Shown in pieces: positions 1 to 9,205 of a stretch of DNA of 64,000 bases (position 1 is its first letter; every line of letters begins with the position of its first letter). Below the pieces are notes generated by a model. The model had not been told where the DNA came from. It was given only the letters and a program-made list of their open reading frames with translations, and did not search any database. The stretch is from Escherichia coli (GTDB lineage: Bacteria; Pseudomonadota; Gammaproteobacteria; Enterobacterales; Enterobacteriaceae). The stretch lies in the NCBI RefSeq assembly GCF_003018255.1, contig NZ_CP027440.1; one strand, written 5' to 3'. The translations under genes were made by a program, and so were the position numbers.

Positions 1-1
1 G

Positions 2-2158
2 CAGGGCCATGAAACGCGGTATGAATACAACGCCGCCGGTGACCTGACCGCCGTCATTGCCCCGGACGGCAGCAGAAACGGGACACAGTACGATACGTGG
101 GGAAAGGCCATCCGTACCACGCAGGGTGGTCTGACGCGCAGTATGGAATACGATGCTGCCGGACGGGTCATCCGCCTGACCAGTGAAAACGGCAGCCACA
201 CCACCTTCCGTTACGATGTACTCGACCGGCTGATACAGGAAACCGGTTTTGACGGCCGCACACAGCGTTATCATCACGACCTGACCGGTAAACTTATCCG
301 CAGCGAGGATGAGGGGCTGGTCACCCACTGGCACTATGACGAAGCAGACCGCATCACGCACCGCACCGTGAAGGGTGAAACCGCAGAACAGTGGCGGTAC
401 GACGAACGCGGCTGGCTGACAGGCATCAGCCATCTCAGCGAAGGGCACCGGGTGACGGTGCATTACAGGTATGATGAGAAAGGCCGCCTGACCGGTGAGC
501 GCCAGACGGTGCATCACCCGCAGACGGAAGCACTGCTCTGGCAGCATGAGACCAGACATGCGTACAACGCGCAGGGGCTGGCGAACCGCTGTATACCGGA
601 CAGCCTGCCCGCCGTGGAATGGCTGACTTACGGCAGCGGCTGGCTGGCAGGCATGAAACTCGGCGACACACCGCTGGTGGATTTCACCCGTGACCGCCTG
701 CACCGGGAAACGCTGCGCAGCTTCGGCCGTTATGAACTCACCACCGCTTATACCTCTGCCGGGCAGTTACAGAGCCAGCACCTGAACAGCCTGCAGTATG
801 ACCGCGATTACACCTGGAACGACAACGGCGAACTCATCCGCATCAGCAGCCCGCGACAGACCCGGAGTTACAGCTACAGCGACTCCGGCAGGCTGACCGG
901 CGTCCACACCACCACCTCAAATCTGGATATCCGCATCCCGTATGCCACGGACCCGGCAGGTAACCGCCTGCCCGACCCGGAGCTGCACCCGGACAGCACC
1001 CTCAGCATGTGGCCGGATAACCGTATCGCCCGTGACGCGCACTATCTTTACCGGTATGACCGTCACGGCAGGCTGACAGAGAAAACCGACCTCATCCCGG
1101 AAGGGGTTATCCGCACGGATGATGAGCGGACTCACCGGTACCATTACGACAGCCGGCACCGGCTGGTGCACTACACGCGGACACAATATGCAGAGCCGCT
1201 GGTCGAAAGTCGCTATCTTTACGACCCGCTGGGCCGCAGGGTGGCAAAACGGGTATGGCGGCGTGAACGGGACCTGACGGGCTGGATGTCGCTGTCACGG
1301 AAACCGGAAGTGACCTGGTACGGCTGGGACGGCGACCGGCTGACCACGATACAGAACGACAGAACCCGCATCCAGACGGTTTATCAGCCGGGGAGCTTCA
1401 CGCCACTCATCAGGGTCGAAACCGCCACCGGAGAGCTGGCGAAAACGCAGCGCCGCAGCCTGGCGGATGCCCTTCAGCAGTCCGGCGGCGAAGACGGTGG
1501 CAGTGTGGTGTTCCCGCCGGTGCTGGTGCAGATGCTCGACCGGCTGGAAAGTGAAATCCTGGCTGACCGGGTGAGTGAGGAAAGCCGCCGCTGGCTGGCA
1601 TCGTGCGGCCTGACGGTGGAGCAGATACAAAACCAGATGGACCCGGTGTACACGCCGGCGCGAAAAATCCACCTGTACCACTGCGACCATCGCGGCCTGC
1701 CGCTGGCGCTTGTCAGCACGGAAGGGGCAACAGAATGGTGCGCAGAATACGATGAATGGGGCAACCTGCTGAATGAAGAGAACCCGCACCAGCTGCAGCA
1801 GCTCATCCGCCTGCCGGGTCAGCAGTATGATGAGGAGTCCGGCCTCTATTACAACCGCCACCGCTATTATGACCCGCTGCAGGGGCGGTATATCACTCAG
1901 GATCCGATTGGGCTTAAGGGGGGATGGAATTTTTATCAGTATCCGTTGAATCCGATCACTAATATAGATCCTTTAGGATTAGAAACACTAAAATGCATTA
2001 AGCCACTGCATTCAATGGGCGGAACTGGTGAAAGAAGCGGTCCAGATATATGGGGGAATCCGTTCTATCATCAATATCTTTGTGTCCCAGATGGTAAAGG
2101 GGACTATACTTGTGGTGGCCAAGACCAACGGGGAGAATCAAAAGGAGATGGTCTATAG
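2..2158 (+). CDS. rhsB: Rhs family protein, 3' part of core (YD repeats) through the DPxGL boundary plus a 57-aa C-terminal tip; 5' end lies upstream of the window
   Basis: Frame is open from position 2 with no stop until TAG at 2156-2158. Repeated YD/RYxYD motifs and the conserved core end [39 protein letters not shown] are present. Symbol assigned only from locus context (H-rpt yhhI and yhhJ-rbbA downstream). Confidence 0.85.
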
Positions 2159-2434
2159 GGGCCAGGTAAAGCAAGTAATGATACAAAAGAAGCTGCTGGC
2201 CGTTGTGACCTCGTTGAAACCGATAATAGTTGTGTGGAGAACTGTTTAAAAGGGAAGTTTAAAGAGGTAAGGCCGCGTTATTCTGTATTGCCTGATATAT
2301 TCACACCTATAAATTTAGGGCTATTTAAAAACTGCCAAGACTGGTCTAATGATTCTTTAGAAACATGTAAGATGAAGTGCTCCGGAAATAACATTGGACG
2401 TTTTATTAGATTTGTATTTACCGGAGTGATGTAA
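2159..2434 (+). other. In-frame continuation of the Rhs C-terminal region after a single amber codon; cysteine-rich 92-codon segment, possible distal half of a toxin domain
   Basis: Same reading frame as the rhs ORF; only TAG at 2156-2158 separates them, and the frame stays open to TAA at 2432-2434. AT-rich like typical Rhs-CT regions. Confidence 0.45.
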
Positions 2435-2760
2435 TGAAATGTATTATTTTTTTATTCAGAGCTATATGGCTGGCTTTATCGCTTTTAATACTATTCTTTT
2501 CCATGCATAGACTTTCACTATTAGACTCCACTCGTGATGTGAGCGAGTTAATTAGTCTCATGTCTTATGGAATGATGGTAATATGTTTTCCAACAGGCAT
2601 AGTATTCTTTATTGCTCTAATATTTATAGGGACTGTTTCAGACATTATTGGCGTAAGGATTGATAGTAAGTATATTATGGCGATAATAATATGGCTTTAT
2701 TTTCTGTCAGGAGGGTATATTCAATGGTTTGTATTAAGTAAGCGCATTATAAACAAATAA
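2434..2760 (+). CDS. Small predicted membrane protein (about 3 hydrophobic segments), candidate Rhs immunity protein
   Basis: 108-aa ORF whose ATG overlaps the preceding stop (TAATG); strongly hydrophobic stretches; position immediately after the Rhs-CT is typical for rhsI genes. Confidence 0.55.
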   Translation: MKCIIFLFRAIWLALSLLILFFSMHRLSLLDSTRDVSELISLMSYGMMVICFPTGIVFFIALIFIGTVSDIIGVRIDSKYIMAIIIWLYFLSGGYIQWFVLSKRIINK

Positions 2761-2805
2761 ATTAAGTTAATTGCTCTTGTTATTATATGTAACCTGGGCA
2801 TTGAT

Positions 2806-3275
2806 ATCCCGTATGCCACAGACCCGGCAGGCAACCGCCTGCCCGACCCGGAGCTGCACCCGGACAGCACCCTCAGCATGTGGCCGGATAACCGTATCGC
2901 CCGTGACGCGCACTATCTTTACCGGTATGACCGTCACGGCAGGCTGACAGAGAAAACCGACCTCATCCCGGAAGGGGTTATCCGCACGGATGATGAGCGG
3001 ACTCACCGGTACCATTACGACAGCCGGCACCGGCTGGTGCACTACACGCGGACACAATATGCAGAGCCGCTGGTCGAAAGCCGCTATCTTTACGACCCGC
3101 TGGGCCGCAGGGTGGCAAAACGGGTGTGGCGGCGTGAACGGGACCTGACGGGCTGGATGTCGCTGTCACGGAAACCGGAAGTGACCTGGTACGGCTGGGA
3201 CGGCGACCGGCTGACCACGATACAGAACGACAGAACCCGCATCCAGACGGTTTATCAGCCGGGGAGCTTCACGCC
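2806..3275 (+). pseudogene. Orphan rhs core fragment, near-identical duplicate of window positions about 938-1395
   Basis: Translation of 2878-3275 matches the rhs ORF almost residue-for-residue ([26 protein letters not shown]...[10 protein letters not shown]); homology breaks at 3275 where the H-rpt sequence starts. Confidence 0.85.
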
Positions 3276-4567
3276 CAGGGAAAGATCATCAGAAGTACAC
3301 TTTTTGTACTAAGTAATTCGCATTTTATGTTTAAAAATCGAGATATTCCTCATTACCTGAAGCTGTTTTTTATTGCGTATACATGATCAAATACTCCTTA
3401 CATAATTAAGGAGAACAAAATGGAACTTAAAAAATTGATGGAACATATTTCTATTATCCCCGATTACAGACAAGCCTGGAAAGTGGAACATAAATTGTCG
3501 GATATTCTACTGTTGACTATTTGTGCCGTTATTTCTGGTGCAGAAGGCTGGGAAGATATAGAGGATTTTGGGGAAACACATCTCGATTTTTTAAAACAAT
3601 ATGGTGATTTTGAAAATGGTATTCCTGTTCACGATACCATCGCCAGAGTTGTATCCTGTATCAGTCCTTCAAAATTTCACGAGTGCTTTATTAACTGGAT
3701 GCGAGATTGCCATACTTCAGATGATAAAGACGTCATCGCAATTGATGGAAAAACACTCCGGCATTCTTATGGCAAGAGTCGCCGCAGGGGAGCGATTCAT
3801 GTCATTAGTGCGTTCTCAACAATGCACAGTCTGGTCATCGGACAGATCAGGACGGATGAGAAATCCAATGAGATTACAGCTATCCCTGAACTTCTTAACA
3901 TGCTGGATATTAAAGGAAAAATAATCACAACTGATGCAATGGGTTGCCAGAAAGATATTGCAGAGAAGATACAAAAACAGGGCGGTGATTATTTATTCGC
4001 TGTAAAAGGAAATCAGGGGCGGCTAAATAAAGCCTTTGAGGAAAAATTCCCACTGAAAGAATTAAATAATCCAGAGCATGACAGTTACGCAATTAGTGAA
4101 AAGAGTCACGGCAGAGAAGAAATCCGTCTTCACATTGTTTGCGATGTCCCTGATGAACTTATTGATTTCACGTTTGAATGGAAAGGTCTGAAGAAATTAT
4201 GCGTGGCAGTCTCCTTTCGGTCAATAATAGCAGAACAAAAGAAAGAGCCAGAAATGACGGTCAGATATTATATCAGTTCTGCTGATTTAACCGCAGAGAA
4301 GTTCGCCATAGCAATCCGAAACCACTGGCACGTGGAGAATAAGCTGCACTGGCGTCTGGACGTGGTAATGAATGAAGACGACTGCAAAATAAGAAGAGGA
4401 AATGCAGCAGAATTATTTTCAGGGATACGGCACATTGCTATTAATATTTTGACGAATGATAAGGTATTCAAGGCAGGGTTAAGACGTAAGATGCGAAAAG
4501 CAGCCATGGACAGAAACTATCTCGCGTCAGTCCTTGCGGGGAGCGGGCTTTCGTAATCTTGCCCTGA
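3276..4567 (+). mobile_element. H-rpt (H-repeat, ISAs1-family) element, full-length copy
   Basis: About 1.3 kb unit containing a 378-aa transposase-like ORF; its 5' leader (3300-3420) and 3' end recur in the adjacent defective copy; boundaries approximate. Confidence 0.7.
3420..4556 (+). CDS. yhhI: H repeat-associated protein / ISAs1-family transposase
   Basis: 378-aa [35 protein letters not shown]... recognised as the H-rpt ORF; SD-like AAGGAG 8 nt upstream. Confidence 0.85.
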
Positions 4568-4613
4568 TCAGACCACCGTTGATCACCATATCCATGAGTT
4601 TATGAATAAAGGG

Positions 4614-5192
4614 CAGGGAAAGATCACGCAACGCTGCTTTTTTGTACTAAATAATTCGCACTAAATATTCAATAATTGAGATATTCCTTATTACCTAAAG
4701 CTGTTTTCCATTGCTTATACATGATCAAATACTCCTTACATAATTAAGGAGAACAAAATGGAACTTAAAAAATTGATGGAACATATTTCTATTATCCCCG
4801 ATTACAGACAAGCCTGGAAAGTGGAGCATAAATTGTCAGATATTCTACTGTTGACTATTTGTGCCGTTATTTCTGGTGCAGAAGGTTGGGAAGATATAGA
4901 GGATTTTGGGGAAACTCATCTCGATTTTTTGAAGCAATATGGTGATTTTGAAAATGGTATTCCTGTTCACGATACCATTGCCAGAGTTGTATCCTGTATC
5001 AGTCCTGAAAAATTTCACGAGTGCTTTATTAACTGGATGCGTGACTGCCATTCTTCAGATGATAAAGACGTCATTGTAATTGATGGAAAAACGCTCCGGC
5101 ACTCTTATGACAAGAGTCGCCGCAGGGGAGCGATTCATGTCATTTCTCGCGTCAGTCCTTGCGGGGAGCGGGCTTTCGTAATCTTGCCCTGA
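4614..5192 (+). mobile_element. Defective second H-rpt copy with large internal deletion
   Basis: Leader and first about 125 codons nearly identical to copy 1, then jumps directly to the last about 15 codons and 3' end of the element (junction near 5143). Confidence 0.7.
4758..5192 (+). pseudogene. Truncated yhhI-like transposase remnant (internal deletion)
   Basis: 144-aa ORF identical at the N-terminus to the 378-aa H-rpt ORF but lacking about 250 internal codons. Confidence 0.8.
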
Positions 5193-5209
5193 ATACCGGA
5201 CTGAGTATA

Positions 5210-5244
<35 letters not shown>

Positions 5245-5345
5245 TGGTCAGTTCATAAACGCCTTATCCGGCCTAAAAAAAACTAAAATTCAATAAATTG
5301 CACCAATGCGTAGACCCTATAAGCTTACGCATCGGGCAACTGTAA

Positions 5346-6473
5346 TTACGCCATTGTCCCAATTGTCTTCCTGAATCTCAACAGTGCGATGGTGAAAAAC
5401 GCGCCGCCAATTGCCATCAGTGTCAGGAACTGCGGCCAGACGATTTCGAATCCGGCACCACGGTAGAGAATGGCCTGCGCGAGGCTAACAAAGTGTGTCG
5501 TCGGCATGGTCAGCATAATGTCCTGCACCATCTGCGGCATACTTTCGCGCGGCGTGGAACCACCGGAAAGCATTTGCAGCGGCAGCAGCACCAGAATCAC
5601 CAGCAGCCCCAGTTGCGGCATTGAACGCGCTATCGTCCCCATAAAAATACCGATTGACGTGGTGGCAAACAGACTGAGCGCCACGCCCAGCATAAACAGC
5701 GGGATCGAGCCTTCTATCGGTACGCCCAGCACGCCTTTTACCATCAGCACCAGCGATAATCCCGACACCACCAGCACCACCAGCCCCATCGACCAGACCT
5801 TTGCCATCATGATCTCAAACGGCGTTATCGGCATCACCAGTAAGTGTTCCACCGTGCCGTGTTCACGCTCGCGGATCAGCGCCGATCCGGTCAATACAAT
5901 CGCCAGCATGGTAATGTTGTTGATGATCGCCATCACCCCGCCAAACCACGCGGGATCAAGGTTCGGGTTAAAGCGCATCCGTGTTTCCAGCGATACCAAC
6001 GGTTCGCTGTTATCACGGTAGCGCGCGACAAAGCTGTTCACTTCACCGTTGATAATATTCTGGATATACCCATTGCCGGTAAATGCCTGGCTCATGCGCG
6101 TGGCATCGACGTTCACCTGAATATCCGGCTGGCGTCCGGCGAGGACATCACGCTGAAAATTAGGCGGAATATTTATCGCGAAGGTATAACGTCCGGCGTC
6201 CAGCCCGGCATCCATCTCATCGGCGGTGATCATCTCCGGTGGCAAAAACCACGGGCGATAGAAGCTGTTAACGATCCGGTTCGATAACTGCGATTGATCC
6301 ATATCGGCAATGGCGATCGGCGCGAGGTTCAACGATCCTGGCGTAACGGTCGCTGACGAATACACCGACACCGTAAACGAGAAGACAATCAGCGTCAGCA
6401 TCGCTTTATCACCGAGCAGACTGCGCAACTCTTTGATACCCAGATTAAAAATATTACGTAAATGGCGCATCAT
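5346..6473 (-). CDS. yhhJ: ABC-2 type transporter permease
   Basis: Hydrophobic 375-aa product; start chosen at MMRHLRNIF, overlapping the rbbA stop; operon position after rbbA. Confidence 0.85.
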
Positions 6474-9205
6474 CCCTCCTGTTTTTTCAGCAGCAGGATG
6501 CTTAAGCCCATCACCAGCGGTATGGCTATCAGCAACGGGATAAAAAGTTGCCACAAATCAGTCAGATCCAGCGCTTTCGAGAACGTTCCGCGGGCGATAG
6601 TCAGAAAATGACTGGTCGGGTAAACCTCGCCGATCCAACGTCCTGGACCTTCCAGCGAAGCTACCGGATCGATCATCCCGGAAAACTGTGTCGCCGGGAT
6701 CAACGTGATAATTGCCGTACCAAAAATGGCGGCAATCTGGCTTTTCATAAAGGTGGAGATCAGCAGCCCCATTCCGGTGGCGATGATGATATACAGCAGC
6801 GCCGCCAGGGTGAGAGTCAGGAAACTGCCTTTATGCGGTACGCCAAATACAAATACCGACAGGGCGCAGAGCAGGAAAAAGTTCAGCATCCCCAGCGCGA
6901 TGTATGGCAGCTGTTTGCCAAGCAAAAATTCGCTACGGGTGGTGGGGGTCACGTAAAGGTTGATAATCGACCCTAGCTCTTTTTCCCGCACCACGCTAAG
7001 GGCGCTTAGCATTGACGGGATCATCATCAGCAGAAGCGGGATCACCGCCGGAACAATCGCCGGCAGGCTTTTTACGTCCGGGTTATAGCGATAGCGCGTC
7101 TCAATATTCATCAGCCCGCTTTGGCTGGCGGGTGTGGACTGTCGGCTCGCCACATCCTGTAGCCAGCTCTGGTGCATGGCCTGCACGTAGCCTTTTACCG
7201 TTTCGGCGCGGCTCGGCATCGCACCGTCGATCCAGACACCGAGTTCCACGGGCGTACCACGCGCGATATCGCGCCCGAAATTAGGAGGGATCTCAATTGC
7301 CACCGTGATATCGCCCGCACGCATCCGACGATCAAGCTCGTCATAACTGGTGAGCGGCGGCTGTTCGATAAAGTAACGGGAACCGGAGAGATTGAGCGTC
7401 CACGCCTGGCTACTGACGGTTTGATCGCGGTCAAGCACCGCAAAGCGCAGGTTTTCCACATCCATACTGATGCCGTAACCCATTATCAGCATCAGGATCA
7501 CCGTTCCCATCAGCGCCAGCGTCGAACGTACCGGATCGCGTCGCAGTTCCAGCGCTTCGCGGCGGCTGTAGCTAAACAGACGGCGCAGGCTAAATCCCTG
7601 ACGCGCCGCGTGGGTGGTGTCGTGTATCACGGGCGGCGCTTCGGCTTCGTTGCTCTGCCCTGCCGCTTCCTGCAAACAGGCGATAAATGCCTCTTCCAGA
7701 CTTGCGGCTCCGCGTTTCTCAACCAGTTCCTGCGGTGTCCCGCTGGCGAGCACTTTTCCGGCGTGCATCAGTGAGATACGGTCGCAACGTTCCGCTTCGT
7801 TCATAAAGTGGGTGGAGATGAAGATAGTCACTTTGTCCTGGCGCGAGAGATCGACCATCAACTGCCAGAACATATCCCTCGCCACCGGATCGACGCCAGA
7901 AGTAGGCTCATCGAGGATTAACATCTCCGGGCGATGAATCACCGCCACCGCCAGCGAAAGCCGCTGGCGAATGCCGAGCGGCAATGACTCCGGCAGAACA
8001 TCTTCAACGTCGTTGAGCTTAAAACGCTCGCTCATTTCAGCCACTCGCGCGGGAATTTCCGCTTCCGGGATGTGAAACAAACGGGCATGTAACTCAAGGT
8101 TTTGCCGCACGGTGAGTTCGTTATAGAGCGAAAACGCCTGCGACATATAGCCTACCCGACGGCGGGTATCGATATCTTTTGGATCAACCGGTTGCCCAAA
8201 CAGCCACGCCTCACCTTCGCTGGCGGGCAGCAGTCCGGTGAGCATTTTCATGGTGGTGGATTTACCGCAGCCGTTCGAACCGAGGAATCCAAAAATCTCC
8301 CCGCGTGGAATGCGGAAATTGACGTGATCAACGGCAACGAAGGAACCAAAACGCATGGTCAGATCGCGCGCTTCGATGGCAATCTCTGCGTTTTCAGGGT
8401 GATACGGTGGGATCACTACCGCCTGATGCGCCTGGCGTTGCGCTTGCGGTAACAGATTTATAAATGCTTCTTCCAGCGTGGCGCTTTGCGTTTGCTGCCG
8501 CAGCTCTTCGGCGCTGCCGGTTGCCAGCACTTCTCCGGCATTCATCGCTACCAGCCAGTCGAAGCGTTCGGCCTCTTCCATGTAGGCGGTGGCGACCAGC
8601 ACGCTCATATTGCTCTGCCGCTGGCGAATGCTGTCGATCAAATCCCAGAACTGGGCGCGGGAGAGCGGGTCAACCCCCGTTGTTGGCTCATCAAGAATCA
8701 ACAGTTCCGGGTCGTGGATTAACGCACAGCACAGCCCAAGTTTTTGCTTCATCCCGCCGGAGAGTTTCCCTGCCGGACGATCACGAAACGGTGCTAACCC
8801 GGTGCTGGTCAGCAGCTCATTGATTCGCACTTCCCGCTCCGCTTTGTCGTGACCGAACAGGCGAGCGAAAAAATCGACGTTTTCATACACCGACAAGGTG
8901 TGGTAGAGGTTTTTGCCCAGCCCCTGCGGCATCCAGGCGATGCGCGGGCAAACGTCGCGGCGATGCTTCGGGTCGCGCATATCGCCGCCCAGCACCATCA
9001 CGCTGCCCTGCTCAATGACGCGGGCACCGGAAATCAACGACAACAAGCTCGATTTACCGACACCATCCGGTCCAATCAGCCCGACCATGCAACGGGCCGG
9101 AATATCGAGTGTGATATTGTTCAGCGCAACGGTTTTTCCATAATGCTGGCTCACGCCCGCCAGTTGCGCGACAGGCGGGACGGGAACCAGTTCCAGATGC
9201 GTCAT
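6470..9205 (-). CDS. rbbA: Ribosome-associated ATPase, fused tandem ABC ATPase domains plus permease domain
   Basis: 911-aa ORF with two Walker A motifs ([18 protein letters not shown]) and ABC signature LSGGMKQK, C-terminal membrane domain. Confidence 0.9.

Follow-up and report, generated by a model that had tools for sequence, protein, structure and literature searches.

Rhs loci typically comprise a GC-rich core, a variable AT-rich tip and, downstream of it, a small immunity ORF. Composite elements that combine Rhs and H-rpt sequences were reportedly described in the 1990s by Hill and co-workers. Two elements of E. coli K-12 serve for comparison here. The RhsC element (rhsC-ybfB-ybfO-ybfC-H-rptC1/C2/C3) resides at kdp-ybgA, and several H-rpts of the same orientation follow its genes, abutting directly. 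Some of these copies are defective: C1 consists of a 5' fragment, and internal sequence is missing from C3. The RhsB element (rhsB-yhhH-yrhC-H-rptB/yhhI-yhhJ) carries a single H-rpt, a different tip and the immunity gene yhhH.

Tips have been proposed to be displaced by homologous recombination between cores, via circular intermediates, and to be shareable between loci; there is little evidence for new tips coming from elsewhere within the same genome (Jackson 2009, PMC2935791). The same study also notes core fragments with no attached tip. In orphan rhs-CT/immunity modules, a core fragment forms a direct repeat right after the main tip/immunity pair (PMC2935791; Poole 2011, PMC3150448; PMC3967940). 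In Salmonella, main and orphan genes have recombined over 522 bp at 95% identity (Koskiniemi 2014, PMC3967940).

The window analyzed here is a 64,000-nucleotide stretch of E. coli DNA. Its Rhs locus shares the tip, ybfB, a 45-bp spacer and the start of ybfO with the K-12 RhsC element, and likewise ends in H-rpts of one orientation. However, this block lies at the RhsB site (nikR-yhhJ). Its ybfO breaks off after 470 bp, which leaves it with neither the ybfO tip nor ybfC, and its H-rpts are parted by a putative relic of an IS630-family transposase gene. With the K-12 RhsB element it shares the chromosomal site, the right-hand H-rpt/yhhJ junction and a full-length H-rpt of 1291 bp whose ORF encodes 378 aa, whereas neither the core stump nor the IS630 relic occurs in that element. 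Like the orphan modules, it has a direct-repeat core fragment behind the main tip/immunity pair, of a length (470 bp) similar to the Salmonella repeat. The main functional difference is that the stump described here brings no new toxin into play.

Location and distribution of the locus

Since nikR and yhhJ/rbbA bracket the locus, annotation places it at the RhsB site. In the three best E. coli matches the annotated order is nikR, rhs, ybfB, a partial 'RHS element protein', yhhI (an ISAs1/ISEc1 transposase), a partial ISAs1 transposase, yhhJ and rbbA. Positions 1-6600 are collinear with these three matches at 98.7-99.8% identity. The yhhJ gene, the conserved chromosomal flank by which the site is identified, occupies 5346-6470 on the minus strand according to the annotation of one of the compared loci (L001); all other features given below are on the plus strand. 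Positions 5145-6600 match the K-12 RhsB locus (L002 7479-8934), and positions 1-3275 are collinear with rhsC, ybfB and the 5' part of ybfO in the K-12 RhsC locus at 96.8% (L003 4344-7618). Judging from these alignments, the site is RhsB but the tip, ybfB and the orphan start correspond to the K-12 RhsC locus (rhsC-ybfB-ybfO).

With a probability of about 85%, we regard this region as the worn distal end of a locus for clade-I Rhs polymorphic toxins, located at the RhsB site of the E. coli chromosome; it would serve no particular function, and three kinds of event have left a layered record in it. Rhs composites of this type, built by tip displacement and IS decay, are already known, and RefSeq genomes already annotate its parts as such. 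All of its components are of known kinds: Rhs core, tip, immunity gene, dissociated core fragment, intact and defective H-rpt/ISEc1, and IS relics. An RhsC-type tip is linked to nikR in only three of 5426 complete E. coli genomes. The junction between the stump and the first H-rpt (H-rpt1), and that between H-rpt1 and the relic, are each confined to the same three genomes. The combination is therefore rare, yet it is an ordinary outcome of known processes.

Main core, toxin tip and ybfB

The window begins within the main rhs gene, and the 3' part of its core extends to 1969 (positions 1-1969; ORF 143-2158). The core is collinear with that of K-12 rhsB up to 1956 and with that of ybfO up to 1969. 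A profile search aligns its final 27 residues with RHS_core positions 1235-1261, and translation and alignment show a conserved DPxGL motif where the core gives way to the tip, at the end of the homology to other cores. The GC content is 0.59-0.64 over positions 1-1800 and drops to 0.41 and finally to 0.31 across 2101-2700, and the order of core, tip and small ORF is the layout typical of Rhs loci.

The AT-rich C-terminal toxin tip (1970-2433) is of the RhsC type and collinear with K-12 rhsC (96.8%). An in-frame TAG at 2156-2158 interrupts the tip in this strain: position 2157 is A here and G (TGG, Trp) in two of the compared loci (L001 and L008). The ORF that follows (2434-2760) encodes a ybfB-type small membrane protein of 108 aa, annotated as ybfB in those two loci and in K-12. 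It is presumed to be the immunity gene for the RhsC-type tip; a profile search found no NCBIfam match for the protein. A 45-bp spacer (2761-2805), identical at 44 of 45 positions to the one preceding ybfO in K-12 (L003 7104-7148), leads into the orphan fragment.

The orphan stump as a direct repeat

The original prediction held that 2806-3275 duplicates the upstream core at about 938-1395. Alignment bears this out and widens the upstream copy to 935-1404 (R1). The two copies align over 470 nt without gaps and with four mismatches (949, 961, 1210 and 1255), or 99.15% identity, and are spaced 1871 bp apart. As had also been proposed, the downstream copy (R2) ends exactly where an ISAs1-family H-rpt begins. 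Homology to the core breaks off at 3275, which leaves the final 565 nt of the core unrepresented, and the left terminal repeat of the H-rpt starts at 3276. Beyond the repeat the main gene continues with ACTCATCAGG and the copy with CAGGGAAAGATCA.

Alignment, the RHS_core profile and collinearity with K-12 identify R2 as the 5' end of a ybfO-type orphan rhs fragment. The orphan ORF matches positions 937-1072 of the 1261 in NF041261 (RHS_core; E = 1.4e-87) and scores below the whole-protein cut-off of 2000 bits, as expected for a fragment. The stump has a GC content of 0.61. Its ORF (2878-3312) extends 37 nt into the H-rpt and then stops, and it is annotated as a pseudogene for a partial 'RHS element protein'. 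At the point where the window switches to H-rpt, K-12 ybfO goes on with the remaining core, its own tip and ybfC. The orphan core fragment is thus only the 5' stump of a dissociated (spare) tip of the ybfO type.

A functional orphan rhs-CT/immunity module consists of a core fragment, its own toxin tip and a cognate immunity gene. Here the core fragment is present and the tip is absent. Neither ybfC nor another cognate immunity gene lies 3' of the stump, where only H-rpt, IS630 relic and yhhJ sequences are found. With no toxin and no immunity part, the stump is probably inert as a gene. The only activity it is likely to have is that of a direct repeat, at which RecA-dependent recombination could delete or duplicate the 1871-bp unit that holds the tip and ybfB. 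Deletion between R1 and R2 would remove this unit, join the main core to the H-rpt and destroy the rhs gene; duplication would amplify the tip/immunity unit. Because the stump lacks a tip and an immunity gene, recombination with it cannot switch toxins and can only delete or duplicate. The proposal that these repeats are substrates for further rearrangement is thus plausible for a 470-bp direct repeat of 99% identity, but the deletion product would lose the main rhs gene and no spare toxin would be activated.

An intact H-rpt

H-rpt1 (3276-4566) is an intact 1291-bp insertion sequence of the ISAs1 family (ISEc1/yhhI type), with the ends CAGGGAAAGAT... and ...ATCTTGCCCTG. Its uninterrupted ORF (3420-4556) encodes a 378-aa transposase that scores 412.5 bits against the NCBIfam ISAs1 model NF033564, which has a cut-off of 70, and contains the Pfam domains DDE_Tnp_1_assoc (PF13808) and DDE_Tnp_1 (PF01609). 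Comparison with other full-length copies gives a dN/dS of about 0.06, the differences being mostly synonymous, and the element looks capable of coding. It is 96.7% identical to K-12 H-rptB. The GC content of the H-rpts is 0.33-0.43.

ISAs1 elements normally have terminal repeats of 14-22 bp that begin with CAGGG, and generate a 10-bp target duplication (PMC11946415). The left inverted repeat of H-rpt1, which starts at 3276, and the reverse complement of its right end, CAGGGCAAGATTA, both begin with CAGGG and are identical at 11 of 13 positions. H-rpt1 is therefore like other members of the family (ISEc1/H-rpt) in its transposase model, Pfam domains, CAGGG ends and length, and differs in a perfect terminal repeat of only about 11-13 bp, shorter than the usual range, and in its flanks. 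No 10-bp direct repeat surrounds it, the flanking sequences being GCTTCACGCC and ATCAGACCAC. No paper treating ISAs1 and H-repeats together was found in the literature library searched.

H-rpt copies differ from one another by 2-6%, and no copy identical to H-rpt1 was found outside its lineage, where the best match is 98.4%. There is thus no sign of recent transposition. Comparison of H-rpt1 with seven other copies revealed no clear switch point of the kind expected in a mosaic.

An older boundary next to yhhJ

H-rpt1 is followed by 47 bp (4567-4613) that RefSeq annotates elsewhere as part of an IS630-family transposase gene, from its N-terminal helix-turn-helix region. This spacer occurs in 261 of 5426 complete genomes, labeled there as a partial IS630 family transposase, and is found neither in the K-12 RhsB and RhsC loci nor in the remainder of the window. 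A longer relic of 129 bp under the same RefSeq label is present in L005 (6928-7056), a locus with an extended orphan array. It translates as DCIKAIFLASEG, a stop, and NSVMITQALRLHQTTVDHHIHVFMNKG, and this 43-aa translation gives a weak hit to an IS630 transposase model (E = 0.017, profile positions 3-40). The putative IS630 identity of the 47-bp relic is drawn from the RefSeq annotation and this weak HMM hit. In about 80 genomes the relic has since been split by IS1.

The second H-rpt, here called H-rpt2-delta (4614-5191), is 578 bp long and consists of the 5' 531 bp and the 3' 47 bp of an element with an internal deletion of 713 bp. It begins at 4614 with the same 13-nt left end as H-rpt1. 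Positions 4639-5144 match 3301-3806 over 506 nt at 94.07%, and 5145-5192 match 4520-4567 at 48 of 48 positions; the missing 713 bp are equivalent to 3807-4519 of H-rpt1. No microhomology is evident at the deletion junction (5144/5145). The transposase ORF (4758-5192) retains 129 native codons, which match only positions 1-102 of NF033564, and since 713 is not divisible by three, translation continues out of frame through the final 47 bp and adds a 15-aa tail. RefSeq annotates the element as an ISAs1 transposase missing its C-terminus. Its flanks, GAATAAAGGG and AATACCGGAC, contain no 10-bp direct repeat.

Aligning the two copies thus defines the ends and the deletion junction, and the extended identity expected from the original prediction is found both between 2806-3275 and the core and between the two H-rpts. 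The second copy is indeed internally deleted and in the same orientation as the first. The predicted jump in its ORF is real, but falls after codon 129 rather than about 125 and continues out of frame. The description of the pair as tandem holds for their orientation; they are not contiguous, as the 47-bp relic lies between them.

H-rpt2-delta is not a decayed duplicate of H-rpt1, because the two are only 94% identical. The same allele is present in L005 (7048-7625) and in L006. The RhsB locus of strains Ecol_545 and 7/2 ends distally in the order yibA, an rhs fragment, a sel1-repeat gene, the IS630 relic, a truncated ISAs1 transposase and yhhJ, and this stretch matches positions 4567-6600 at 98.4%, including the internally deleted H-rpt. 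The relic and H-rpt2-delta therefore adjoin yhhJ in other lineages that have no H-rpt1; in L005, further orphan and immunity genes precede the relic. The deletion junction was detected in at most 306 of 5426 genomes, an upper bound in which some joined two-piece matches are counted. Together, the relic and H-rpt2-delta are an older locus boundary common to roughly 260-300 of the 5426 complete E. coli genomes. The 713-bp internal deletion in this boundary H-rpt beside yhhJ would be the older event.

Origin of the H-rpt1 junctions

The left flank of H-rpt1 is rhs core and its right flank is the IS630 relic. These flanks are neighbors in no other genome, and in the L005 array approximately 6.5 kb, including several orphan and immunity genes, separates the corresponding points. 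The original prediction attributed the arrangement to repeated insertion. The lack of target duplications at both H-rpts and the unlinked flanks of H-rpt1 contradict this, and indicate deletion or recombination at the H-rpt. The missing 10-bp repeat argues for rearrangement after insertion and not against membership in the ISAs1 family. H-rpt1 is most simply read as the mark of a deletion, and the junctions would therefore record H-rpt-associated deletion or recombination and not simple insertion.

We infer the order and mechanism of these events by comparing the locus with K-12 RhsB, K-12 RhsC, L005 and the 5426 complete genomes, a comparison that the original prediction had suggested. H-rpt-adjacent deletion, or recombination between H-rpts, would have removed everything from about codon 133 of the ybfO-type orphan to a point inside the IS630 relic, and an intact ISAs1-family H-rpt would have remained as the new joint. 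This could have happened by one-ended IS-adjacent deletion or by homologous recombination between two H-rpts of the same orientation. A search of the 5426 complete genomes with each H-rpt1 junction separately gave the same three genomes for both. No H-rpt was found in these genomes inside an intact IS630 relic or inside an otherwise intact ybfO core. The deletion step is thus deduced from end states, which both routes would share. Transposition of E. coli H-rpts is reported not to have been observed (PMC3032704), which weakens IS-driven adjacent deletion relative to plain homologous recombination.

A parallel is found at the K-12 RhsB element. The pseudogene yrhC corresponds to the 5' 347 bp of a HEAT-repeat gene resembling yibA. 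It breaks off exactly where H-rptB begins on the left, and there too a target duplication is absent; the yibA-like gene is intact in L005. Moreover, exchange of sequence between H-rpts is visible. When the window is compared with strain DETEC-S792, there are three differences over 935-3733, 30 over 3734-4561 and none in the next 819 bp, so that the cluster of differences ends at the end of the H-rpt. The yrhC case and this exchange together make a process of H-rpt-linked deletion or recombination credible.

Origin of the tip arrangement and alternative histories

Upstream of the H-rpts, core recombination would have shunted an older tip downstream, such that an RhsC-type tip and ybfB are now on the main gene and a ybfO-type start lies behind them. 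The unit between the two 470-bp repeats is exactly what a crossover between the main gene and ybfO would excise. The RhsC locus of the sister genome JNE112863 contains a main gene with a tip of the ybfO type, together with a ybfC-like gene, and lacks ybfB; the RhsC-type tip and ybfB are at RhsB. A circle bearing the RhsC-type tip and ybfB may have been excised from RhsC in this way and integrated into the RhsB core, a relocation within the genome that we put forward tentatively and consider unlikely. Import from another strain fits the arrangement equally well. The RhsB and RhsC cores of this lineage are 99.1% identical, and this homogenization within the genome has largely erased diagnostic sites in the 470-bp repeat, so that site patterns carry little historical signal.

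The order of events could also be reversed. The stump would then be the original main gene of RhsB, truncated by H-rpt1 at the equivalent of core position 1404 and later repaired by an incoming tip cassette: a circle of R, the 3' part of the core, the RhsC tip, ybfB and the 45-bp spacer that main/ybfO recombination had released from the RhsC locus. The limits of such a cassette, 935 and 2805, are exactly those of the excision circle, and the JNE112863 RhsC locus has the form expected after excision. Relative to DETEC-S792, the core is 4.2% diverged up to 922 and almost identical from 935 on, and a circular intermediate of this type has been proposed (Jackson 2009, PMC2935791). However, a K-12-like rhsC-ybfB-ybfO block brought in by ordinary double crossover, with truncation of the orphan afterwards, gives the same end state. 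The RhsC-locus configuration may also be ancestral, as the same tip is on the RhsB main gene in L005, and the homogenized cores say little about order. We consider this history possible, if on the unlikely side.

Far less probable is simple transposition of H-rpt1 into the orphan core and of H-rpt2 beside it, with no loss of flanking DNA. The intact transposase ORF of H-rpt1, which is under purifying selection, and its complete terminal repeats speak for this, but both H-rpts lack a target-site duplication, the right flank of H-rpt1 is IS630 relic and not rhs core, no identical copy of H-rpt1 was found outside its lineage, and the 2-6% divergence among copies gives no sign of recent movement. 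The region is also built of multi-copy repeats (H-rpts occupy a median of five places per genome), as might favor mis-joining of rhs and H-rpt sequences during assembly. There is next to no chance of this, since three complete genomes from Japan and China, each assembled independently, share both unique junctions at 97-100% identity. Misassembly together with chance similarity was likewise rejected, given the 99.15% identity of the repeat and the collinear arrangement in three complete genomes. Displacement of a tip followed by H-rpt-linked deletion therefore stays our preferred account of the locus.

Implications for Rhs loci

Several points bear on annotation. The main toxin of this strain has a nonsense codon, and the 'orphan' behind it is unable to supply a new toxin. 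The second H-rpt and the IS630 relic are a stable lineage marker and do not reflect a recent event. More broadly, the locus illustrates how the silent toxin/immunity arrays behind rhs genes erode at H-rpts, and that one toxin tip can occupy different Rhs loci in different lineages. If the relocation from RhsC to RhsB took place as outlined above, it would provide a natural instance of the step through a circular intermediate that Jackson 2009 proposed, with both halves of the exchange kept in the lineage.

Toxin tips of the main rhs genes

The main rhs gene at the RhsB site carries an RhsC-type toxin tip (1970-2433) that is interrupted by an in-frame TAG codon at 2156-2158. The stop is created by an A at position 2157, where the two closest lineages have a G and encode tryptophan (TGG). 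As a result of this substitution, the toxin domain of the window strain ends approximately 92 codons early. The adjacent ybfB, the presumed immunity gene (2434-2760), is intact.

Linkage of an RhsC-type tip to nikR is rare, occurring in only 3 of 5,426 genomes. In the lineage of the window, the RhsB site holds this tip together with ybfB (1-3275). The RhsC site of a sister genome, JNE112863 (L007 1-7253), has a main gene with a ybfO-type tip accompanied by a ybfC-like gene.

The upstream core of the window's main gene can also be compared with that of DETEC-S792 (window 1-934 versus L008 1001-1934). The two sequences are 4.2% diverged up to position 922, and near-identity begins at 935, a boundary that coincides with the left-hand end of the 470-bp repeat.

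H-rpt elements: selection, probable exchange and variants

Full-length H-rpt transposase ORFs from the window (3420-4556), the K-12 RhsB locus (L002), the EC581 RhsC site (L004) and DETEC-S792 (L008) differ mainly by synonymous changes, with dN/dS values of about 0.06-0.13. This pattern indicates purifying selection on the transposase of an element that has never been seen to transpose in E. coli.

The intact element, H-rpt1, contains a patch with 30 differences from DETEC-S792 (window 3734-4561 versus L008 4734-5561). The patch stops at the final bases of the element, and its flanks differ at only 0-3 positions. The patch looks like the product of gene conversion, with another H-rpt copy as the donor.

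The two H-rpts of the window share a 13-nt left end that is followed by unrelated 12-nt stretches, TCAGAAGTACAC (3289-3300) and CGCAACGCTGCT (4627-4638). K-12 H-rptB resembles the TCAGAAGTACAC version at these sub-terminal positions, and H-rptC1 and H-rptC2 resemble the CGCAACGCTGCT version, which indicates that H-rpt exists in two sub-terminal variants.

In K-12, the pseudogene yrhC (L002 5888-6234) is what is left of a HEAT-repeat gene resembling yibA (compare yibA, L005 4520-5362): its 5' 347 bp are present, and the cut point is the exact left end of H-rptB. Other strains keep an intact copy. This is a second case, at the RhsB locus, in which a gene is cut off where the left end of an H-rpt begins.

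The putative IS630 relic in other genomes

In approximately 80 genomes, the match to the putative IS630-family relic stops after its first 34 bp because an IS1 element has inserted into it (L006 7001-7800); this insertion adds one more layer of IS decay here. The relic is also present, together with the sel1 gene that precedes it at the RhsB site of strains Ecol_545 and 7/2, at the RhsC site of EC581 (L004 7001-8420). There, it is followed by 12 additional bp (AAGTTAAAGCCC) and then by a full-length H-rpt that carries an internal stop; the right end of this element adjoins an rhs core fragment beginning at core position ~1609. As the EC581 RhsC site illustrates, blocks combining array and H-rpt sequences evidently move between Rhs loci.
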